A stretch of 64,000 nt of DNA from Candidatus Tayloriibacteriota bacterium (GTDB lineage: Bacteria; Patescibacteriota; Minisyncoccia; Phycocordibacterales; CAIZLB01): positions 21,949 to 85,948 of the forward strand of contig VEQN01000001.1 in assembly GCA_018883165.1 (NCBI GenBank), in the 5' to 3' direction. Of the stretch, positions 14,944 to 63,970 are shown in pieces; position 1 is the stretch's first letter; each line of letters opens with the position of its first letter. Made by a program: the position numbers and the translations under genes. The notes under the pieces are model-generated. The model was not told the DNA's origin. It worked only from the letters and a program-made list of their open reading frames with translations, and did no database searches.

Positions 14944-15657
14944 ATGATACTCACCAAGAAGTTCGCACTCACATGGAAAAAACTGATCGAGGGCGCAGCG
15001 CAAGGAAAGTGCTGCAGATTCAAACGTGTGCTTTTCGAAGTTCCTGAAGGCTACCTCACTGGATCATCAACAGAAGATCCTCACACCCTGGCCTTTGCTG
15101 GACTCTCACAAAAAGCACTACACGGATACAGAAAAAGACTCGAATATGACGATGTAACGTATATCCATGCCAACTGCCTACATCTCAACGCGATTGCTGG
15201 AGGCTTGGTACTTGGGACCAGAAATACCAAGTGGATGACTCCCGATGACGACGTGTTCGTTCTACCAGGCGGCTTCTGGTACGTGAGAGCAGATGTCTAT
15301 GCGAGCACAGACGAACCTGGGGATGTCTCATTCACTTGGGCACAGACGCTCTGTGAGATTCTTTCTGGCCAATCACAGATTGAAGTCAGTGGTGGAATCC
15401 AGATGGCTTCCCCACCTGGAGACAAACCATTTAGGATCAGGCTTAAAGCGAGTAACCGTGACGACAAGAAGTTGCTTCAAATGAAAGTGCTCTTCGACAT
15501 AATCAAAGGTTCCAAACACCCATACCACGCCAAGGTTATGGCAACCTTGATTCACGTCATGCACATACTCATCATGGCTCATGAGGAGCTCCCCAAAAGA
15601 GCAAACCTTGTGAGCATCGGAATCAACGATGGCTACATTACGGGCAACATAAATTGA
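14944..15657 (+). CDS. Hypothetical protein (237 aa).
   Basis: Long ORF divergent from dnaX. No motif recognised. About 47% GC, similar to the core genes. Confidence 0.45.
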   Translation: MILTKKFALTWKKLIEGAAQGKCCRFKRVLFEVPEGYLTGSSTEDPHTLAFAGLSQKALHGYRKRLEYDDVTYIHANCLHLNAIAGGLVLGTRNTKWMTPDDDVFVLPGGFWYVRADVYASTDEPGDVSFTWAQTLCEILSGQSQIEVSGGIQMASPPGDKPFRIRLKASNRDDKKLLQMKVLFDIIKGSKHPYHAKVMATLIHVMHILIMAHEELPKRANLVSIGINDGYITGNIN

Positions 15658-29973: not shown

Positions 29974-30582
29974 ATGATATGTATTGACAATCTGTCTTTC
30001 AATTGTATTATATTAGGCAGTTCTTTCACACAAACCCCACACACTAACACGCATATGAAATTCCACTTGATTGAAACCCTTGAGTTTGATATCCGCCCTA
30101 AAAAATTTAAGCCCGGTAGACACTTTGGCGAAGGATGGGCACTTAGCCAAACAACAACCGGTCTCACACAAAAACCTGTTGAAGAGGAACTGGCACTGTT
30201 TTTCAAAAGAATAGCCGCCGCCTCAAAACTACCTACCGCTCAAGGGAGAAAAGCTCTCTTCACCAACGCCCTTACGGATGCTGAGGAAAGTACCAAGTAC
30301 ACCGACGCCATCAGCAGGCTGAGTAACGACCTTCTCGGGAGCCCACACTTGCTATGGACTCTCCTCATGGAGAAGGACACGAAACTCCTCAATCATATTG
30401 AAGGAAAGTATGGTGTCGATTTCATCGTGTCATTCGGGAAGATGATTCAACATTCGGGCGATCCAAGACAGCATTATGTCCTCTGGGCCGCCAAAGCGAA
30501 GAATAGACCTGGATGGACCTGGGGCAAGTTTGATGTTAAAGGCAGCAGCGTACTGCAAAATACATCCATCTTGATTCTTTGA
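29974..30582 (+). CDS. Hypothetical protein. The true start may be MKFHLIETLEF at about 30055.
   Basis: ORF with its own downstream hairpin. No motif recognised. Confidence 0.4.
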   Translation: MICIDNLSFNCIILGSSFTQTPHTNTHMKFHLIETLEFDIRPKKFKPGRHFGEGWALSQTTTGLTQKPVEEELALFFKRIAAASKLPTAQGRKALFTNALTDAEESTKYTDAISRLSNDLLGSPHLLWTLLMEKDTKLLNHIEGKYGVDFIVSFGKMIQHSGDPRQHYVLWAAKAKNRPGWTWGKFDVKGSSVLQNTSILIL

Positions 30583-49581: not shown

Positions 49582-50979
49582 ATGACACACCCATCCCTAC
49601 CACCCAAACCACATCCACAACTCTTCCGTTCAGGATTCCTCTCCGCTTGGTTCCAGACACCACCCGGAACAAGCAGCGAGATGTTTACCCATAAGCCGTC
49701 GCGGGCATCTCTTACTGCTGCGCGCTGGCACATCGAATATGCAAAAAAGCACGGTATCCAGACCATTGAATTGGCTGGGGCTCATACCAAACGCACCGCA
49801 AATGTCAATCCGGAAAAACTCGCAGACCCGGTTGCAGCACACTGCGACATGGAGACCACCAGCGACGGAGAAGGCACAGACATGAGCGACGACTTCATCA
49901 AGCGGCTGAAAGATGCCGCTGATGGCAAAGTCACTATCGGCACACTCGGAACATTCGAAAATGCTCTGCATCTCGACCTCGGTGCCCGACGCCAAAACAT
50001 CATGCACTTCCGGCGCGCAATTCGAGCTGTGGCGCGGATGAAAGCACTCGGTCTCGGAACTGAAGGGGTCACGATCTTTGTTGGCCGAGACGTCACAAAA
50101 TCAGTGGCAGAGAACCTGCGGCTGTTCGCCAAGGTCCTCATTCCTATCGCACTGTATGCAAAAAGCCTGGGCGTCAAGATCTTCATCGAGAACTGCCCGA
50201 TGTGCGGATGGAGTGAGACCCACGAGGTCTTCATCCAAAACATCGCGAATAACGTGGAGCACTGGATCGTCATGGCGCGCACCATCGAAGAAGCTGGCCT
50301 GAAAGGCTGGGTCTTCATCAACTATGATGCAAGTCACGACATCCTCCAGTTTACTCGCCCAGAGTGGGTGTTCCAAATCCTTAAGCGTGCGGGCTACGCT
50401 TGGATCATTGGCCGATTCCACGGCAAAGACTTGTCGCGAATGTCTGGTTACACAGCAGCGGCGACTTCTCTTGGCTCACGAATCCGTGGACCCTGGGAAA
50501 AGATGTCTGGTGATCAACCCCTACCGGGCGCGACACACCACAACCCCCTCGCCATTGCAAATGGTCAACAAGTGGACTGGTTTGGATTCTGTGTCCATGC
50601 AATCACAAGCCTTGGCTGTGCATCAGACCCAAACAACCTGATGACATTCACCACCGAATGTGAGCACGGCGCACTCCGATACTGGAAAAACTTCCTCGTG
50701 CCCGGAACCACAGACAAGTGGGACCAAGAACGACACGCGGAAGTCGCAGGTGCGGTTCTTGCCTCATCTATCCAATACATCCAGCATCAAGGATGTGCTG
50801 CGCTCCAACACACCTACATGCGAGATGTTCTTGCCCAAGTCCCCGGGTCAATCTGGTCATATCAACCACTCGACCCAAACAACTTGGAACTCCTACCTGG
50901 GGTTGATGACTGCATCAGTCGTGCGAAAGAATTCGAAATTGGTCCAATCAACATGACCGAAGAGGTCGTCATTGAATAA
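49582..50979 (+). CDS. Divergent xylose-isomerase-family TIM-barrel protein with a Pro-rich N-terminal extension. Compositional outlier.
   Basis: GTEGVTIFVGRDV resembles the XylA FWGGREG block. IGRFHGKD resembles the XylA FHD.D metal motif. KIFIENCP resembles the XylA EPKP block. 60-nt hand counts give about 50-55% G+C, with frequent CTG/CGC/GCG codons, versus about 37-48% in the flanks. Confidence 0.45.
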   Translation: MTHPSLPPKPHPQLFRSGFLSAWFQTPPGTSSEMFTHKPSRASLTAARWHIEYAKKHGIQTIELAGAHTKRTANVNPEKLADPVAAHCDMETTSDGEGTDMSDDFIKRLKDAADGKVTIGTLGTFENALHLDLGARRQNIMHFRRAIRAVARMKALGLGTEGVTIFVGRDVTKSVAENLRLFAKVLIPIALYAKSLGVKIFIENCPMCGWSETHEVFIQNIANNVEHWIVMARTIEEAGLKGWVFINYDASHDILQFTRPEWVFQILKRAGYAWIIGRFHGKDLSRMSGYTAAATSLGSRIRGPWEKMSGDQPLPGATHHNPLAIANGQQVDWFGFCVHAITSLGCASDPNNLMTFTTECEHGALRYWKNFLVPGTTDKWDQERHAEVAGAVLASSIQYIQHQGCAALQHTYMRDVLAQVPGSIWSYQPLDPNNLELLPGVDDCISRAKEFEIGPINMTEEVVIE

Positions 50980-53078: not shown

Positions 53079-53651
53079 TTGCACTTTCTCATGAAACCCA
53101 CATATACACCACCTGATAACGGCGGATTTATGATCCCCCGTTGTTCCGACAGGGTCATTTTGGCCTTTGTCAATGAAAAAGACCGCTGGGAAATTCTTGG
53201 CGGCGGCGAAGAACCCGAAGACAATGGTGATCTCCTTAACACTGCTATTCGTGAATCGCAAGAAGAAGGAATGCTCACCGTGGAAAGAAATCACGCGCGC
53301 CATGTTGGAAACCTGGTACAGGTCATTCCTGGTACAGGTGGAAAAACTGGCATCGCTGCGGTTTGGAGTACTCAAATCTTTGAGCCCATCTCCGGACTAA
53401 AGTGGAAAGAATTCCAGCTCTTTCGCAAGACAGACCCTGCCTACAACAAAGAGACTGGGGGAGTATCCATGATTCGCCTAAAAGACATCTTCTGTGAAGG
53501 TTCACCGTTTGCCATCCCACTGGGACACAAACGAATGATTCTCCACATGTTGAATGTTGAAACAGACTTCGGCAAACCACTCATTGAAGGAATTCGCCTT
53601 GGTCAACCTGTGACCGCCTTGGTGCCACACCTTGGTATAATCACATGCTGA
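53079..53651 (+). CDS. Nudix-hydrolase-like protein (degenerate Nudix box).
   Basis: WEILGGGEEPEDNGDLLNTAIRESQEEGML approximates GX5EX7REUXEEXGU with a 3-aa insertion. The assignment rests on the motif only. Confidence 0.4.
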   Translation: MHFLMKPTYTPPDNGGFMIPRCSDRVILAFVNEKDRWEILGGGEEPEDNGDLLNTAIRESQEEGMLTVERNHARHVGNLVQVIPGTGGKTGIAAVWSTQIFEPISGLKWKEFQLFRKTDPAYNKETGGVSMIRLKDIFCEGSPFAIPLGHKRMILHMLNVETDFGKPLIEGIRLGQPVTALVPHLGIITC

Positions 53652-57386: not shown

Positions 57387-59192
57387 ATGGACATACGAAA
57401 CATCGCAATCATCGCTCACGTAGACCACGGCAAGACCACCATTGTTGACTCTATGATGAAGTACACCGGTATGGTAAAGGACGCCGTATCAATGGACTCA
57501 AACACTCTTGAACAAGAGCGTGGTATTACCATTTACGCCAAGAACGCTTCACTCATATATACCAGTAAAGCAACAGGAGTAGCTCACAAAATTAACATCA
57601 TCGATACACCTGGTCACGCGGACTTCGGATCTGAAGTAGAACGTGTACTTAAATCAATCGACTGTGTACTCCTTGTTGTTGATGCCCAAGAAGGCCCAAT
57701 GCCGCAAACACGGTTTGTACTCAAAAAATCAATTGAGCTCGGACTTAAACCAATTGTAATCATGAACAAGCTCGACAAACCTGCTGCGAACCCAGGACGA
57801 GTACATGATGAAATCCTTGAGCTCTTCATGGAACTTGGCGCTGATGATGCACAGCTTAACTTCCCTGTCATCTATGCCGTTGGCAGAGACGGTGTTGCTA
57901 AAAAAGAACTTACTGATGAGTTTAAAGACCTTGAACCATTGTTTGAAATGATCATTGAAAAAGTTCCAGCTGCTGAAGACAAAAGTAGCGAGCCACTTGT
58001 TGCACAGCCATTCAACCTTGCGTACGACAACTTCCTTGGACGACTTGCAGTTGCACGTGTATGGAGCGGTACAATTAAAATGAATCAAACTGTATATATC
58101 AAGAAACCAAATGGTTCAGTTGAAACTGCACGAGTAGTTAAACTATTCACATTCGAAGGCATGAGTAAGAAAGACTCAGATGAAATTACATCTGGTGATG
58201 TTGCAATGATTGCCGGCCTCACAAACATCTACATTGGTGACACCATCACTGACAACCCTGAAACACATTCCCTTCCAGCAATTTCAATCGACGAACCAAC
58301 AATCTCACTCAACTTCCTTGTAAACGACTCTCCATTTGCTGGACGAGAAGGAAAATTCGTAACAAGTAGACAAATTCGAGATCGACTCGAAAAAGAACTT
58401 GAAGTGAACGTTGGACTTCAGGTTGATTTCACAAATGCTGATCGTATGAAAGTGTACGGACGAGGTGAACTCCATATCGCGATTCTTCTTGAACAAATGC
58501 GACGAGAGGGGTTTGAACTTCAGGTATCACAACCAGAAGTAATCTTTAAAGATATTGATGGTAAGAAACATGAACCATATGAAGAAGTGGTAATTGATAC
58601 ACCAGATGAATTCTCTGGAACAATCATCGAGAAGCTCGGGAAGCGAAAAGGTATCATGACTTCAATGAAGCAACATGATGGGGTTACTAGACTCACATTC
58701 GATATTCCGACTCGAGGTCTCCTTGGATTTCGAAGTCAGTTCGTGGTTGATACAAAAGGTGAAGGAATCATGTCATCACGATTTACGGAATTTAGAACAT
58801 TTGCTGGTGTCATTGAAAAACGAGAAGTTGGATCAATGATCTCAATGGAGAACGGAAAAGCAGTAACATTCGCACTAGGCAACCTACAAACTCGAGGTGT
58901 TCTCTATATCGGTCACGGCACTGAAGTATATGCTGGTATGGTCATCGGAAACACCTCAAAAGGTGAAGAGATGGAAGTGAATCCAACTAAAGGAAAGCAG
59001 CTCACAAACATGCGAGCATCAGGTACTGATGATACGGTATATCTTACTCCCCCACTTGAAATTACAATTGAGCGAGGTCTAGAACTCATCAATGAAGACG
59101 AATATTTGGAAATTACTCCAACATCTACGAGAATACGAAAAAAATATCTGACACGAACAGACAGAGACAAAGCAAAGAAAGGAATTGTATAA
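57387..59192 (+). CDS. typA: Translational GTPase BipA/TypA.
   Basis: IRNIAIIAHVDHGKTTIVDSMM, DTPGHADF, NKLDKP, and the BipA-specific C-terminal domain. Confidence 0.9.
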   Translation: MDIRNIAIIAHVDHGKTTIVDSMMKYTGMVKDAVSMDSNTLEQERGITIYAKNASLIYTSKATGVAHKINIIDTPGHADFGSEVERVLKSIDCVLLVVDAQEGPMPQTRFVLKKSIELGLKPIVIMNKLDKPAANPGRVHDEILELFMELGADDAQLNFPVIYAVGRDGVAKKELTDEFKDLEPLFEMIIEKVPAAEDKSSEPLVAQPFNLAYDNFLGRLAVARVWSGTIKMNQTVYIKKPNGSVETARVVKLFTFEGMSKKDSDEITSGDVAMIAGLTNIYIGDTITDNPETHSLPAISIDEPTISLNFLVNDSPFAGREGKFVTSRQIRDRLEKELEVNVGLQVDFTNADRMKVYGRGELHIAILLEQMRREGFELQVSQPEVIFKDIDGKKHEPYEEVVIDTPDEFSGTIIEKLGKRKGIMTSMKQHDGVTRLTFDIPTRGLLGFRSQFVVDTKGEGIMSSRFTEFRTFAGVIEKREVGSMISMENGKAVTFALGNLQTRGVLYIGHGTEVYAGMVIGNTSKGEEMEVNPTKGKQLTNMRASGTDDTVYLTPPLEITIERGLELINEDEYLEITPTSTRIRKKYLTRTDRDKAKKGIV

Positions 59193-59200
59193 AAATTGAA

Positions 59201-59237
59201 CCCCCGGAGCATGATGCCACGGGGGTGAAATTTTTTT
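59201..59237. terminator. Hairpin terminator after bipA.
   Basis: cccccg-gagcatgatgcca-cggggg-tgaaattttttt. Confidence 0.45.
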
Positions 59238-59274
59238 GACACTATATTTCAAAGTGGTTGCTGGAGATGCCAGC

Positions 59275-60303
59275 CTACTTCGTCTCTTCGATTTTCTTCA
59301 GTTTCGCCTGAAGCTCCTCGAAGAAACGATCCTTTGTCTGCACAGCTTCCTTACCTTCAGGGGGATTGGGGTTGTGAACATGTGTATTCTCACCCTCCCG
59401 CGCATGGATGCGCCCAAAGAAACCATTGAGTTGTTTAAGGATGGCAGTGGCACGCCCTGGTGTAATTGTCTTGTCATAGACGCGACGGAACACAAAAGCG
59501 ATTCCTTTCCTGAACGGATCAGGTTTGCCATCTGGACCAAACTGGGTAAACAAATGTTGCTGCTTGTTTTCAACAGTTGCCAGATAATACGCGAGCTCGC
59601 GCTCATACCAACCTGGCTGACTGATGACATCTTCAACATGCTTCCCCAGTTGAACATATCCTTCACGGTGTGTCTTTGGCATGAAAGCAAAGAGCAGATC
59701 GAACTGCTGAGTGATTTCATACACCAATGCATCCTGATGCTTCTCATCCTTCAAGAGTTCAATCTGTGGGATGTTAGCAAACACCCAGAATGGAACCCCT
59801 TTGGTGATTTCATCGAATGCAGACTTCCGTTTTTCCAAGTCAGCATCTGTTGCATTTTTCAAAGTGACATTCGTCACCTGATCAATGCGGGTACTCACCG
59901 ACTTTCGGGATTCCTCAATGAGCGGGTCATAGAAGTTTCCGCGACCAAGGACGCCGTAGGCGGTGATGATCCGGAGCCAAGACTCATGATCCCACCTGGC
60001 GTATGATGCAGGTTCTGAGACCATCGATGCGGCGTGAGTGGAGAACCATCCACCCCAGATGTCTTTTCGAAACTCCGAAGGCAGATTCAAACTGGAAGGC
60101 ATCCTGGCGATGATGGAAGCCTCCACTGTTGTAAGGTGACTTCCCCATGATGTGTTTCCAAAGTAGGCAGGCGGAGGTGGAACACCTTCGCTTTCAGCCG
60201 CAATGAGGTTAAGGTTGATGTTAAGGCCGATGATGGCCATAAGGCAGGCGCGCAGCAAAACTGCGGACCACGACTGGGTGTGGGTGCTGGTGTTCATTTT
60301 CAA
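59275..60303 (-). CDS. Secreted hypothetical protein (signal peptide), moderately GC-rich.
   Basis: MKMNTSTHTQSWSAVLLRACLMAIIGLNINLNLIAA, a signal peptide. No domain recognised. Local G+C is patchy, about 45-63%. Confidence 0.45.
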   Translation of the reverse strand: MKMNTSTHTQSWSAVLLRACLMAIIGLNINLNLIAAESEGVPPPPAYFGNTSWGSHLTTVEASIIARMPSSLNLPSEFRKDIWGGWFSTHAASMVSEPASYARWDHESWLRIITAYGVLGRGNFYDPLIEESRKSVSTRIDQVTNVTLKNATDADLEKRKSAFDEITKGVPFWVFANIPQIELLKDEKHQDALVYEITQQFDLLFAFMPKTHREGYVQLGKHVEDVISQPGWYERELAYYLATVENKQQHLFTQFGPDGKPDPFRKGIAFVFRRVYDKTITPGRATAILKQLNGFFGRIHAREGENTHVHNPNPPEGKEAVQTKDRFFEELQAKLKKIEETK

Positions 60304-60421
60304 TGAAAGCGGACTATCCGCATTTATTATTATACCATATATAACATATTAGTCAATATATGGCACAGATCAGGTAACAAGTTACATATTAAAATATAGA
60401 ATTATGTATGCACCTAAAGAA

Positions 60422-60450
60422 ACTGCCCGACCATTGGTCGGGCAGTTGCC
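60422..60450 (-). terminator. Hairpin terminator downstream of the PurO-like gene.
   Basis: 10-bp perfect stem ctgcccgacc-attg-ggtcgggcag. On the minus strand it is followed by a T-rich run. Confidence 0.5.
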
Positions 60451-60466
60451 GTCTTTGTGACATCAC

Positions 60467-61327
60467 TCAAGCACTAGTGGTCTCAGGATAACGGTTCTTG
60501 ATGACCGTTTTCACAGCACCATCCTTGAGGCACACCTCCGTGCCGAAGAGACACACCTTGTGAGCTTTCGGGAGTACCTCCCACAGCGACTCCACAGAAG
60601 AATCCAAATCGCCACCGAATGGTATTTCGAATGGACCACCCCGGAAGGATGGGATGAGCGATTTTTCGTCACTCGGATCTGGCGAGTCTGCTTCATAGGT
60701 TGTCAGGCACAGGCCGACACCTTTGATGAGACCCTCCGCAGGGTACGACCAAAAGGCTCGCTCGACAGGACTGTCAACGCCGGGTTTCGTCCGACGAATA
60801 ATTCCCATCTCGACAGTGTGTTTCCCGCCACTTCGGTGGACAAGACTCGCGACGATGCGCGGAGTCTGATTCAAATCAGGCTCAGGGAGACATGTGCCGA
60901 GAACATTTGCGAGCGTCTTGGTGGCACCATTCTCGACGAGACCGACTGCGAGATCGGTGTGGTCACCATTGCTTGCCACATAGGCGTTGTTACCACAGAA
61001 CACATTTTGACTCCAGGCATTGTAGATGACCAATGATGGGTCATCCTTAGTTTCCTCGGCGAATGCAGTCTTGATGTTCATGTGATTCACAGTCTGAACC
61101 AGCTTGCGGTTCCGAGAGCGTGTACTGCGGCCAGTGATGAAGTACAGGAAACGAATGCCTGTACCACCTTCATTGAGGCCGACTACAAGGCCTCGGCCAG
61201 GGTAATTGCACCCACGCAGAACCTCGAGGTTATGCGGGGCGTCCCCTGGAATGACATTAACACTAATATGTTTTGACTTCACGATGTTAGAGCGGGTTGA
61301 TGTGTTTACAAACAACAAAATCAGCAC
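60467..61327 (-). CDS. Archaeal-type IMP cyclohydrolase (PurO, PF07826-like) homolog, possibly with an N-terminal extension. Compositional outlier.
   Basis: Recalled M. jannaschii PurO blocks align. GRILAVGRNSNGSF matches GRGLVVGLNEGGTG. AVVSNGSHTD matches AYVASNGDHTD. ELNTPRIAAA matches DLNQTPRIVAS. Hand counts give about 53-55% G+C with CGC/CTG codons. Confidence 0.5.
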   Translation of the reverse strand: MLILLFVNTSTRSNIVKSKHISVNVIPGDAPHNLEVLRGCNYPGRGLVVGLNEGGTGIRFLYFITGRSTRSRNRKLVQTVNHMNIKTAFAEETKDDPSLVIYNAWSQNVFCGNNAYVASNGDHTDLAVGLVENGATKTLANVLGTCLPEPDLNQTPRIVASLVHRSGGKHTVEMGIIRRTKPGVDSPVERAFWSYPAEGLIKGVGLCLTTYEADSPDPSDEKSLIPSFRGGPFEIPFGGDLDSSVESLWEVLPKAHKVCLFGTEVCLKDGAVKTVIKNRYPETTSA

Positions 61328-61339
61328 AGAAGTGCCGAC

Positions 61340-62662
61340 ATGTTGTCGGCAAGCGTGTGCTTAGCCACAAGAAGAGTACTCTTAGAGACAGGGTTTGTAA
61401 AGCGACACGGGAATGTGATAAAATTCAAACAAATGGAATCATTTCAACATTCCTATGATCGTCCCAGTTTAAATGGATTTGAAACAGAAGAGCGTGCTTA
61501 TCAAATCAAAGAAAGGATTTTTGGGTCGAGAACACTTTCAAGACTCGCCGAACTTGATCCATCAAGAGATGCAGATCAGATCAATACCCTACTCCAAGAG
61601 TCTATAGAAGATTTGTTTAAAAAATCTTCAAATGATGGTGTATTTAATGACAGAACACTACGGACAATAGCTGGACTATTTGATATACAACTAACGAATT
61701 CTACGGACAAACTTGAGGTATTGGAGCAGATAGATGAGAAACTGTCTGATCTTTTACTGTGGAGATCCGCACTCGAAAGATACAATCGCGAACACCAAGA
61801 GAGACAGCTAATATTTAGATCTGAGATTGAACCCGTTCTTAAAGACCGTGTCGAATCCATGATCGGTATCCAGATAGATTCCGGTTTTTTACCCATAAGT
61901 AGAGAACGTGTGAGTGATTTAGTCGCTCGACTTGAATTTAATGCAGTCGACCTGTTAAACCATCCTGAGCGCGCAGGAAGATATAGAGCCAATACTCATG
62001 AAATTGATATTGTACTAGATTCTTCTTTCCCTACTGCCAACTCATGGAATCCTGAAGATGTAGAAAAGCTCGTCGAACAATATACACATACATATTTGCA
62101 CGAAATAGTGCATGCCATATCAGGTCATACAATTTTAGGGGTATCTGAACAAGATAAATTATCCAGTGTAGTTTCTAGTGAAGAAATTGGAATACACAAA
62201 AATCATGTTCAGAAGATTGGTCTTCTATACATGAAAGGGGCACCTAATAATATAGCAGGATATGCTGGAAAAGAGGCTCGGTTCAATTGGTTTAATGAGG
62301 CGGTAACTGAATACATAACAAGAAAAGTCTTGAGTACAGATTCTGCAGAAAGTCCAGTGTATCAAAGTGAAGTTGATTTTTTTGAGCTACTCAAAGAAAA
62401 AACTGGACTAACTGATGAATTAATTTTACAGGCATATTTCGAAGATTATGTACCATCTGAACAGACGGGTGATAAGGTCCCATGTTGGAACTTACTAAAG
62501 AAACAAATAGACGAATCACTTGGACCCGATGGATTGGTTAAATTAGATGACGCACTAAGAGGATTAAAAGGTCCGCTCCTGTACATGAAAGGAAAAAATA
62601 TATTGAATAAGACACCAACGGAGATTAGTCCTTTACATGCTTTATTGAGTCAACAATTGTAA
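61340..62662 (+). CDS. Hypothetical protein with an HExxH zinc-metalloprotease-like motif.
   Basis: TYLHEIVHAISGH contains HEIVH. The rest is unrecognised and AT-rich like the backbone. The start may be the internal Met MESFQH. Confidence 0.45.
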   Translation: MLSASVCLATRRVLLETGFVKRHGNVIKFKQMESFQHSYDRPSLNGFETEERAYQIKERIFGSRTLSRLAELDPSRDADQINTLLQESIEDLFKKSSNDGVFNDRTLRTIAGLFDIQLTNSTDKLEVLEQIDEKLSDLLLWRSALERYNREHQERQLIFRSEIEPVLKDRVESMIGIQIDSGFLPISRERVSDLVARLEFNAVDLLNHPERAGRYRANTHEIDIVLDSSFPTANSWNPEDVEKLVEQYTHTYLHEIVHAISGHTILGVSEQDKLSSVVSSEEIGIHKNHVQKIGLLYMKGAPNNIAGYAGKEARFNWFNEAVTEYITRKVLSTDSAESPVYQSEVDFFELLKEKTGLTDELILQAYFEDYVPSEQTGDKVPCWNLLKKQIDESLGPDGLVKLDDALRGLKGPLLYMKGKNILNKTPTEISPLHALLSQQL

Positions 62663-62680
62663 ATCCAAAGACTTACCCAC

Positions 62681-62716
62681 AAAACAAAACACCCCTTGCG
62701 GAGTGTTTTGTTTTGG
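62681..62716. terminator. Long imperfect hairpin, bidirectional terminator.
   Basis: aaaacaaaacacccc-ttgc-ggagtgttttgtttt, flanked by A-runs and T-runs on both sides. Confidence 0.5.
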
Positions 62717-62752
62717 AAACGTTATGCCTCAGTCGGGTAAACCCGATAGAGA

Positions 62753-63067
62753 TTAATAACTGTTTCGTCGGAAACCACCTCGGTCTCCACCTCGATCGAA
62801 ATCTCGTCGTGGTGGTCGGTCAGTCATAGGTCGAGCTTCGTTAACAACGATAGCTCGTCCGTCGAGATCCTTTCCATTCCACATGTTGATAGCCGCGTCT
62901 GCAGCATCATCTGGAACTTCTACGAATCCGAATCCTCGAGATCGGCCACTCATCTTGTCAGTCATAACTGTTGCTGACTCAACTGGACCTGCTTGCTCGA
63001 AGGCTGCCTTGAGACTGTCAGAAGTTGTCGCCCATGCGAGGTTTCCAACGTACAATTTTTTTGCCAT
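62753..63067 (-). CDS. RRM-domain RNA-binding protein with a C-terminal RGG/RD tail.
   Basis: RNP-2 LYVGNL and RNP-1 RGFGFVEV. C-terminal DRPPRRDFDRGGDRGGFRR. Confidence 0.8.
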   Translation of the reverse strand: MAKKLYVGNLAWATTSDSLKAAFEQAGPVESATVMTDKMSGRSRGFGFVEVPDDAADAAINMWNGKDLDGRAIVVNEARPMTDRPPRRDFDRGGDRGGFRRNSY

Positions 63068-63295
63068 TCGGTACTTTGTCTAAATGTAATTATCCATAGC
63101 CGACCCTCTACACCAAGTGAACCACGAGACCGCGTACCGCTGGCTTTGAGAACTACGAACGAACCTATACTAGCACATGTTTTTGGTTTTGGGAAACATG
63201 AAGCTTTCCTGGTACCTTACCAATCTCTTGATATTTTCTTCATCTGCTGATAGTAATATTGTTACCATAATCAAATAATATTAGAGAAGTAAACT

Positions 63296-63970
63296 ATGAA
63301 GATACTGCTCATCGAAGATGATATCGAATTTTTAGATAAACTATCTAGAAAATTAACCAGTTCTGGTTACATCGTGGATATTTCACAGGATGGAAAATCT
63401 GGTTCATACACAGCTAGAACAAATCACTATGATGTAATAATTATTGATAACAATATTCCTGGAAAAAAAGGCATAGAGATATGTCAAGAAATACGTATGG
63501 CAAAAATTCAAACGCCGATACTAATGTTAACGATAGACAATGTTACTGAAGTCAAAGTGAAAGCGCTCGATGCAGGAGCGGATGATTATCTAACCAAACC
63601 ATTTTCATATATCGAACTAATTGCAAGAATAAAATCATTAACAAGGAGATCTTATCCGATAACGGAACAAATTTACAAATTAGACGACCTTACTATAAAC
63701 TGTAAAACAGAGGAAGTAATCGTCGATGGAAAAGGAATCTATTTCACAAGAAAAGAATTTCTACTTTTATCGTGTATAGCAAAAAACGCAGGCAAAGTGG
63801 TGAGTCGTGGCCAAATACTTGAAGAAGCATGGGGCAATGATGTAAATCCGTTCTCAAATACAATTGAAGCACATATAAGAAACATAAGAAAGAAAATTGG
63901 CGAGTCCAACAAAAGAAGATACATACAGACGGTACCTGGGCGAGGCTACAAACTCGACCGTTCGAGATAA
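63296..63970 (+). CDS. OmpR-family two-component response regulator.
   Basis: Receiver MKILLIEDD with DVIIID (phospho-Asp) and LMLT. Winged-helix C-terminus with TVPGRGYKL. Confidence 0.85.
   Translation: MKILLIEDDIEFLDKLSRKLTSSGYIVDISQDGKSGSYTARTNHYDVIIIDNNIPGKKGIEICQEIRMAKIQTPILMLTIDNVTEVKVKALDAGADDYLTKPFSYIELIARIKSLTRRSYPITEQIYKLDDLTINCKTEEVIVDGKGIYFTRKEFLLLSCIAKNAGKVVSRGQILEEAWGNDVNPFSNTIEAHIRNIRKKIGESNKRRYIQTVPGRGYKLDRSR

Follow-up and report, generated by a model that had tools for sequence, protein, structure and literature searches.

How did an intact gene for a PurO-like protein, a predicted inosine monophosphate (IMP) cyclohydrolase, come to lie alone in the genome of a bacterium expected to be without de novo purine synthesis, and what would it do there? 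The gene is found on the minus strand of a 64-kb stretch of contig VEQN01000001.1 (assembly GCA_018883165.1; this whole stretch is called the window hereafter), most likely as a coding sequence at 60467..61282. We conclude that it was gained by lineage-specific horizontal transfer and that its predicted product is a divergent member of the bacterial PurO clade. That this product is a working enzyme, converting FAICAR (5-formamidoimidazole-4-carboxamide ribonucleotide) to IMP, is the reading that we favour.

The host is a bacterium from the Candidate Phyla Radiation (CPR, or Patescibacteria) and belongs to Candidatus Taylorbacteria, since the RpoB of the window shares 89% identity with proteins from metagenome-assembled genomes (MAGs) of Candidatus Paceibacterota/Parcubacteria and an open reading frame (ORF) next to the PurO-like gene is 100% identical to a Candidatus Taylorbacteria protein. 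Members of the CPR have been reported to be without de novo nucleotide synthesis (PMC9530719, PMC11665869). No pur gene and no PurH-type domain was found among the about 45 Pfam-scanned ORFs of the window, which agrees with the supposition of the first-pass annotation, made from the letters and a list of ORFs, that this bacterium probably lacks the de novo purine pathway.

Family membership and conserved residues

The PurO-like protein matches PF07826 (IMP_cyclohyd) with 100.1 bits (E=1.5e-28) over profile positions 1-186 of 192, the gathering cutoff of the model being 28.1 bits. The proposed membership of this family is thereby confirmed, and the three blocks aligned by eye with PurO in the first-pass annotation correspond to real conserved motifs in a profile alignment to M. 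thermautotrophicus PurO (MthPurO), with the window/MthPurO pairs YPGRGLVVG/YLGRILAVG, SNGDHTD/SNGSHTD and TPRIVAS/TPRIAAA. A profile built from the bacterial family reaches MthPurO (2ntk/1kuu) at E=4e-13. The structure model predicts for the window protein a full-length PurO fold, with the N-terminal nucleophile (Ntn)-hydrolase-like four-layer alpha-beta-beta-alpha arrangement known from MTH1020, and in fold superposition it is closer to solved PurO than to other Ntn-fold proteins.

We compared residues among MthPurO and 76 bacterial homologues, for which only MthPurO residues 2-120 were alignable by sequence. The window protein keeps all the residues on which MthPurO and 99-100% of the bacterial members agree (97% for S26). 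These are, as MthPurO/window, Y2/Y42, G4/G44, R5/R45, G10/G50, Y20/Y62, R25/R67, S26/S68, R30/R72, Y59/Y102, N73/N120, G74/G121, T77/T124, E104/E149, D106/D151, T110/T155, P111/P156 and R112/R157. The active site of MthPurO has 13-14 contact residues, and Arg, Glu and Tyr side chains have been postulated as catalytic, according to the passage of PMC6797443 that cites Kang 2007. Because every residue shared by MthPurO and the bacterial members is kept, the candidates for these three side chains are all conserved in the predicted window protein. It also keeps the 36 columns that are invariant in a 21-sequence alignment, and 44 of the 49 family columns that are conserved at 95% or more.

A bacterial clade rather than the archaeal type

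The description of the gene as archaeal-type did not hold, since the protein is one of a separate bacterial clade of PurOs, of about 240 aa, which was described in 2019 (PMC6486802). In that survey, Cruz et al. found that 22 bacterial PurO homologues form a separate clade, that bacterial purO typically co-occurs with the gene purV for a stand-alone formyltransferase of 5-aminoimidazole-4-carboxamide ribonucleotide (AICAR) and anticorrelates with purH, and that 7 of the 22 genes are out of pur context; the CPR is absent from the phyla listed. In NCBI and JGI records, family members are often labelled 'IMP cyclohydrolase' or 'inosine monophosphate cyclohydrolase'.

At MthPurO positions 24, 54 and 56 the window protein differs in the way that PMC6486802 describes for bacterial PurOs. 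Bacterial members are matched at 1e-24 to 1e-32 in the protein databases, whereas a phmmer search against PDB sequences returned no PurO at E<1, so that the family profile is needed to reach the archaeal proteins. Of the 21 sequences in the alignment, 20 match the archaeal equivalog models, the window protein among them; the best E in the set is 1.9e-19, and that of the window protein is 5.5e-9. Since its match to the archaeal models is weaker than that of other clade members, it is no closer to archaeal PurO than they are. A phylogeny had been proposed as a check in the first-pass annotation, and our neighbor-joining tree, which is crude and has one archaeal fragment as outgroup, puts the window copy on the bacterial side of the MthPurO root, on a long basal branch; it thus speaks for a bacterial placement and against an archaeal one. 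On these comparisons we assign the window protein to the bacterial PurO clade as a divergent member.

Horizontal gain downstream of typA

The PurO-like gene lies in a variable segment between typA and a gene for an RRM protein (59193..62752), which here is about 3.5 kb long and holds three genes. By tblastn synteny, typA and the RRM-protein gene are adjacent in seven relatives (L088, L129, L084, L087, L085, L089 and L100; TypA 66-88% identical to that of the window), with a gap of 0.25-1.5 kb. Two closer relatives (L163 and L164, TypA 92%) have next to typA a homologue, at 55-58% identity, of the 342-aa ORF that stands downstream of the PurO-like gene, and have no PurO-like gene. A blastn comparison of the window with these two contigs shows in L163 about 0.85 kb in place of window 60361..62680, the part with the PurO-like gene and a 440-aa ORF. 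The PurO-like gene is therefore absent at the typA site from relatives with TypA 86-92% identical, and since close relatives have the typA-RRM site without it, we conclude that it was gained by lineage-specific horizontal transfer. The first-pass annotation had offered a horizontally acquired gene as one of its explanations, and both the absence from this site and the foreign composition described below bear it out.

No protein more than 42% identical was found among 1.84 billion cluster representatives, in a 5.8-billion-protein database or in GTDB genomes, although relatives of the window RpoB at 89% identity do occur in the 5.8-billion-protein database. It follows that the donor is unsampled or that the PurO-like gene diverged fast. 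There is no tRNA within 13 kb of the gene, there are no convincing flanking direct or inverted repeats, and the Pfam-scanned ORFs of the window gave no integrase or transposase domain.

Taken by itself, the typA-RRM interval is a hot spot of gene-content change in this Paceibacterota lineage (the window and L083-L164). Its length ranges from 0.25 kb to 3.5 kb, and it carries unannotatable ORFs that differ among relatives.

Composition of the gene

The PurO-like ORF has a G+C content of 0.525 and a third-position G+C content (GC3) of 0.564, the means of 47 ORFs being 0.412 and 0.349 (z = 2.6 and 2.8), and the G+C content steps up and down at the gene boundaries. Among its Arg codons CGC accounts for 29% (2% in host genes) and AGA for 0% (33% in host genes), while CTG makes up 26% of the Leu codons (5% in host genes). 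Its codon fractions correlate with those of the pooled host genes at 0.45, against 0.73-0.94 for host genes. The hand counts of the first-pass annotation (53-55% G+C, with CGC and CTG codons) had thus rightly marked a compositional outlier. Amino-acid composition was considered as the source of the high G+C content and rejected, since the excess is greatest at third codon positions and is found in synonymous codon choice.

Distribution of the family and the pattern in CPR genomes

Two peptide patterns alone place the family in at least 387 GTDB species genomes, and an exhaustive HMMER search gave 1,129 matches among 1.84 billion cluster representatives, with more than 1000 clusters at 50% identity. 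At least 14 CPR genomes are among the best 80 family matches. With such a spread, the gene is not a one-off among bacteria.

In Clostridia the family gene is part of pur operons, and many CPR lineages have it as well. Among 117 immediate flanking genes of 59 non-CPR loci there are 23 for AICAR formyltransferase (AICARFT, PF01808), 16 for a purN-type formyltransferase, 3 purD and 3 purM. This embedding in purine operons supports the function of the family as IMP cyclohydrolase. Some CPR loci have such partners as well: AICARFT is adjacent in L017, and the Saccharibacteria L007 and L010 have a purM-purL-AICARFT-PurO cluster. These two Saccharibacteria appear to keep several purine-synthesis genes. 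Most CPR PurO loci have no pur context. Beside the pur cluster, L007 (10989-13222, minus strand) and the equivalent place in L010 also carry two tandem PurP-type genes (DUF1246 plus DUF1297, E to 2e-69); PurP was reported in Archaea only by the 2019 survey (PMC6486802).

The GC3 of family genes minus that of their flanks has a median of +0.01 in 55 non-CPR loci and of +0.10 in the CPR loci L020, L024, L027, L031, L036, L058 and L059 (Mann-Whitney p=0.002). The highest z values for GC3 among the CPR copies are 8.9 (L024), 5.7 (L031), 4.9 (L027) and 4.5 (L036), whereas copies from Clostridia, Planctomycetota, Chloroflexota and other non-CPR groups match their flanks. The excess is not simply an artefact of low-G+C genomes, because non-CPR hosts of low G+C content do not have it. 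Atypical composition is thus a recurrent property of PurO-family genes in CPR genomes, and this pattern suggests repeated or ongoing lateral spread into the CPR. In the crude neighbor-joining tree most CPR copies group together beside Planctomycetota and Sumerlaeota, and the window copy stands alone. We found nothing relevant in the literature on purO or IMP cyclohydrolase in the CPR.

Start, terminator and flanking signals

The maximal PurO-like ORF spans 60467..61327 on the minus strand (286 aa, GTG start at 61327). Translation probably begins at the in-frame GTG at 61282, for a product of 271 aa, since the N-termini of database homologues lie about 23 residues ahead of the YPGRG motif in the 21-sequence alignment and residues 1-17 of the maximal ORF have a predicted local distance difference test score (pLDDT) below 50 in the structure model. 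In the interval first given to the gene, 60304-61327, the 286-aa minus-strand ORF was right, and the lower bound was not: 60304 is where the neighbouring ORF ends, and the interval therefore takes in the 163-bp 3' spacer and the terminator too.

A hairpin resembling an intrinsic terminator lies 20 nt past the stop codon (60421..60447, minus strand), with a G+C-rich stem and a loop of 1-3 nt. Its 13-nt arms (60421-60433 and 60435-60447) are 100% complementary, forming 12-13 perfect pairs that are followed by UUUCUUU, and RNA folding gives a centroid energy of -22.3 kcal/mol (z=-3.9), equalled by none of 200 shuffles. The terminator hairpin of the first-pass annotation is thus real, and its stem is longer than the 10 bp then counted. 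It is not among the matches of a consensus terminator scan; our guess is that the scan missed it because the full-length stem extension breaks the T-run criterion. We take the PurO-like gene to be monocistronic, ending in a terminator of its own. In the region 59000-63300, an Rfam scan (E<=1) gave no ZTP or purine riboswitch and no other RNA family. Directly upstream of the maximal ORF there is an inverted repeat, GCCGACA-ACA-TGTCGGC (61336..61352, minus strand), which falls within the 5' end of the maximal 440-aa ORF and is in part flagged as terminator-like (61339..61320).

Function of the protein and competing explanations

We consider it fairly probable that the PurO-like protein is a working FAICAR-to-IMP cyclohydrolase that was horizontally acquired. 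This is favoured by the intact ORF, the 44 of 49 conserved columns kept, the full PurO fold and the precedent of a laterally transferred PurO in T. kodakarensis (TK0430, see below). In this proposal the protein of the gene, which a single Candidatus Taylorbacteria lineage gained at a variable place downstream of typA, would still catalyse the step from FAICAR to IMP, serving a short AICAR/FAICAR-to-IMP salvage branch and not a complete de novo pathway. Both the catalysis and the salvage role are inferred, and the latter would need an AICAR formyltransferase of the PurV, PurH or PurP type elsewhere in the genome, or FAICAR supplied from outside.

Several results weigh against it. The closest family neighbour of the window protein is 42% identical to it, the median for other members being 67%, which makes it the most isolated member, and five near-invariant positions are altered (M to T65, Q to H123, the loss of a 100%-conserved Pro after D151, G to P216 and N to H256). 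The scores against the archaeal equivalogs are far below the cutoffs, with 35.8 bits for NF003167 (cutoff 150) and 24.1 bits for TIGR01922, purO_arch (cutoff 158.35). A tblastn search with genes from related loci found no homologue of AICARFT, purN, purL or purM in the window; with no AICARFT in these 64 kb and the CPR generally without de novo synthesis, no source of substrate is evident for the protein. No promoter meeting the criteria of our promoter scan was found upstream of the gene, and our literature search found no bacterial PurO with an enzymatic characterisation.

These points leave room for a repurposed PurO-fold enzyme, acting on another substrate (a formamido or ureido ribonucleotide, or a host metabolite) or binding nucleotides without catalysis. 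The five altered near-invariant positions keep this explanation alive, and so do the long isolated branch, the solitary gene without pur context here and in most CPR loci, and the reported absence of de novo nucleotide synthesis from the CPR (PMC9530719); that solitary CPR copies are recurrent and compositional outliers also suggests selection for stand-alone use. Yet every residue common to archaeal PurO and the bacterial family is kept, including the Arg, Glu and Tyr candidates, other members of the clade adjoin AICARFT, in the CPR too, and the fold family has no known alternative activity, so that we regard repurposing as unlikely. A wider version, to our mind rather unlikely, is that solitary GC3-rich PurO-like genes have been repeatedly acquired by CPR bacteria without purine synthesis because the single enzyme is useful alone to an episymbiont, as a FAICAR/AICAR-to-IMP salvage shortcut or on a new substrate, the window copy being an extreme, fast-diverged case. 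It could also be that the gene is a neutral passenger, recently transferred, contributing nothing to the cell and yet to be lost. Its presence in one sampled lineage only, in a region whose content differs between close relatives, with no clear promoter and no partner genes within the window, would fit such a passenger, but the ORF is intact and of full length, with no frameshift or stop and with its conserved columns kept, and it ends in a well-formed terminator. An identity of at most 42%, combined with a core that is preserved, implies that purifying selection has acted for long in some host, though not necessarily the present one, and reduced CPR genomes would in general be expected to purge useless DNA; the idea is thus quite improbable.

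Two further explanations concern the origin of the sequence, and we give very little credence to either. Abrupt compositional switches and six GC3-rich ORFs scattered through the window could come from an assembly or binning artefact that joined foreign G+C-rich segments into a Taylorbacteria contig. Against this, the G+C content changes exactly at gene boundaries, a host-like AT-rich spacer with a promoter separates the PurO-like gene from the G+C-rich 342-aa ORF, that ORF has G+C-rich homologues beside typA in two relatives, on independent metagenome contigs, and PurO-like genes on long contigs show the same contrast with their flanks in other CPR MAGs, which come from unrelated studies. A direct transfer of an archaeal PurO, for example from a methanogen host of the symbiont, might be read from the motif NGDHTD, which is nearer to archaeal NGSHTD than to NGDQTR of the bacterial majority, and some Patescibacteria parasitise methanogens, according to a passage of PMC10936435. 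We rejected this origin, since the scores for the archaeal equivalogs are far below the cutoffs and weaker than those of other bacterial members, bacterial members are matched well whereas phmmer finds no PurO in PDB at E<1, and the protein has the bacterial hallmarks: a length of about 240-270 aa, a C-terminal extension, Gly at the Ser24 position, DPS for NPY, and GRSxxSRNR.

Neighbouring genes and other GC-rich ORFs

The downstream G+C-rich ORF (59275..60303, minus strand) has a maximal length of 342 aa and is annotated as a hypothetical protein of 321 aa (FGM57_00380), which it matches at 100%. It has a G+C content of 0.498 and a GC3 of 0.548, no Pfam or NCBIfam match, and a hydrophobic N-terminal segment as read from the translation. 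A search of 5.8 billion proteins gave it only three homologues, which are 55-60% identical to it. On the contigs inspected, those of the homologues at 55% and 58%, the gene is G+C-rich too and adjoins a typA gene that is 92% identical, so that the 342-aa gene is very fast-evolving and lineage-restricted. It has been in the lineage for longer than the PurO-like gene, despite their common foreign codon signature, and it appears to be a separate transcription unit. A strong match to a sigma-70-like promoter (60329..60356, minus strand; TTGACT-16 nt-TATAAT with a TG extension, 11/12 in the promoter scan) lies between the PurO-like terminator and this ORF, in the AT-rich spacer, whose G+C content is 0.375-0.41 between two blocks above 0.5.

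On the other side stands the divergently oriented ORF at 61340..62662 (plus strand), of host-like G+C content (0.379) and up to 440 aa. Its probable start is the ATG at 61433, for a protein of 409 aa, and the promoter scan found a promoter-like site at 61395-61424, just 5' of this ATG. It has no Pfam or NCBIfam family and no homologue in 80 typA loci of relatives; together with the PurO-like gene it fills the segment absent from close relatives. Between this ORF and the convergent RRM-protein gene there is an inverted repeat (62680..62715; 16-nt arms, 94% complementary, 4-nt loop) that is probably a shared bidirectional terminator.

Six GC3-rich ORFs (GC3 0.47-0.58, the gene mean being 0.35) are scattered among host-like genes of the window: 14944..15657(+), 29974..30582(+), 49582..50979(+), 53079..53651(+), 59275..60303(-) and 60467..61327(-). 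Their codon usage correlates with that of host genes at 0.45-0.62, against 0.73-0.94 for host genes themselves. Pfam matches were obtained for two of the six only, the PurO-like ORF and the xylose-isomerase-like (XI-like) TIM-barrel gene at 49582..50979. The first-pass annotation had attributed one and the same outlier signature to these two genes, correctly so; it consists of no AGA, high CGC/CGG and high CTG, and is common also to the 342-aa ORF adjacent to the PurO-like gene. We considered whether the G+C-rich ORFs are a conserved module travelling with PurO-like genes and rejected it, since none of the XI-like, 237-, 202-, 190- and 342-aa ORFs has a homologue in the 80 PurO-family loci. 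The XI-like, 190-aa and 342-aa ORFs had no homologue within the 80 typA loci of relatives either.

The XI-like gene (49582..50979, plus strand; PF01261, 42 bits) is the strongest G+C outlier of the window, with a G+C content of 0.536 and a GC3 of 0.577. No homologue of it was found around lepA in the relative L088, and it is therefore probably another lateral acquisition.

Implications

The PurO-like gene offers a clean example of recent horizontal gain in a streamlined genome, with an empty site in relatives and foreign codons. PurO is not to be read as an archaeal marker, since its bacterial clade has more than 1000 clusters at 50% identity. CPR nucleotide metabolism is also less uniform than usually stated: CPR bacteria are generally taken to depend on hosts for nucleotides, yet at least 14 genomes of the group, within the best 80 matches, encode a PurO-type enzyme, which in other microbes performs the last step of purine synthesis, and in a few Saccharibacteria there are whole pur clusters. 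If the enzyme is active and a formyltransferase partner exists, it would provide an episymbiont with a two-step salvage route from AICAR to IMP. The gene family in bacteria was known; what is new is an unusually divergent CPR member, which makes the finding only mildly unusual. The recurrent GC3-rich and solitary status of the CPR copies is, in our view, the most interesting side result.

Comparison with known systems

The nearest known system is that of the bacterial PurOs (Cruz 2019). The window protein shares with them PF07826, a length of about 240-270 aa, the kept Ser26, the replaced Ser24 and the change of the Tyr56 region to DPS(L), as well as the motifs GRSxxSRNR, NGDxT, ExDxxxTPRI, TTY and PxFxGxP. 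It differs in being at most 42% identical to any member, on the most isolated branch, and in its setting: about 40% of the sampled non-CPR loci (23 of 59) adjoin purV or purN, whereas the window copy does not, and it is a compositional outlier in a CPR host while non-CPR copies match their flanks.

The likeness to archaeal PurO (M. jannaschii MJ0626; MTH1020, PDB 1KUU/2NTK-2NTM) is detectable with profiles only and over the N-terminal about 120 residues only, and the window protein exceeds it in length by about 45-70 residues, having insertions and an extended N-terminus. A lateral PurO is known from T. kodakarensis, where TK0430, encoded within an 'alien operon', shares only 32-35% identity with characterised PurOs and yet has catalytic activity, with a Km in the low micromolar range, and can complement E. 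coli defective in purH2 (PMC6797443). TK0430 travels with purC and a purP-like gene and is archaeal, whereas the window gene is solitary and of the bacterial clade. The conversion of FAICAR to IMP that is predicted for the window protein is also the reaction of PurH2/PurJ, the MGS-like IMP cyclohydrolase domain of PurH, an analogous enzyme whose fold and sequence are unrelated to PurO (PMC6797443, PMC3261824).

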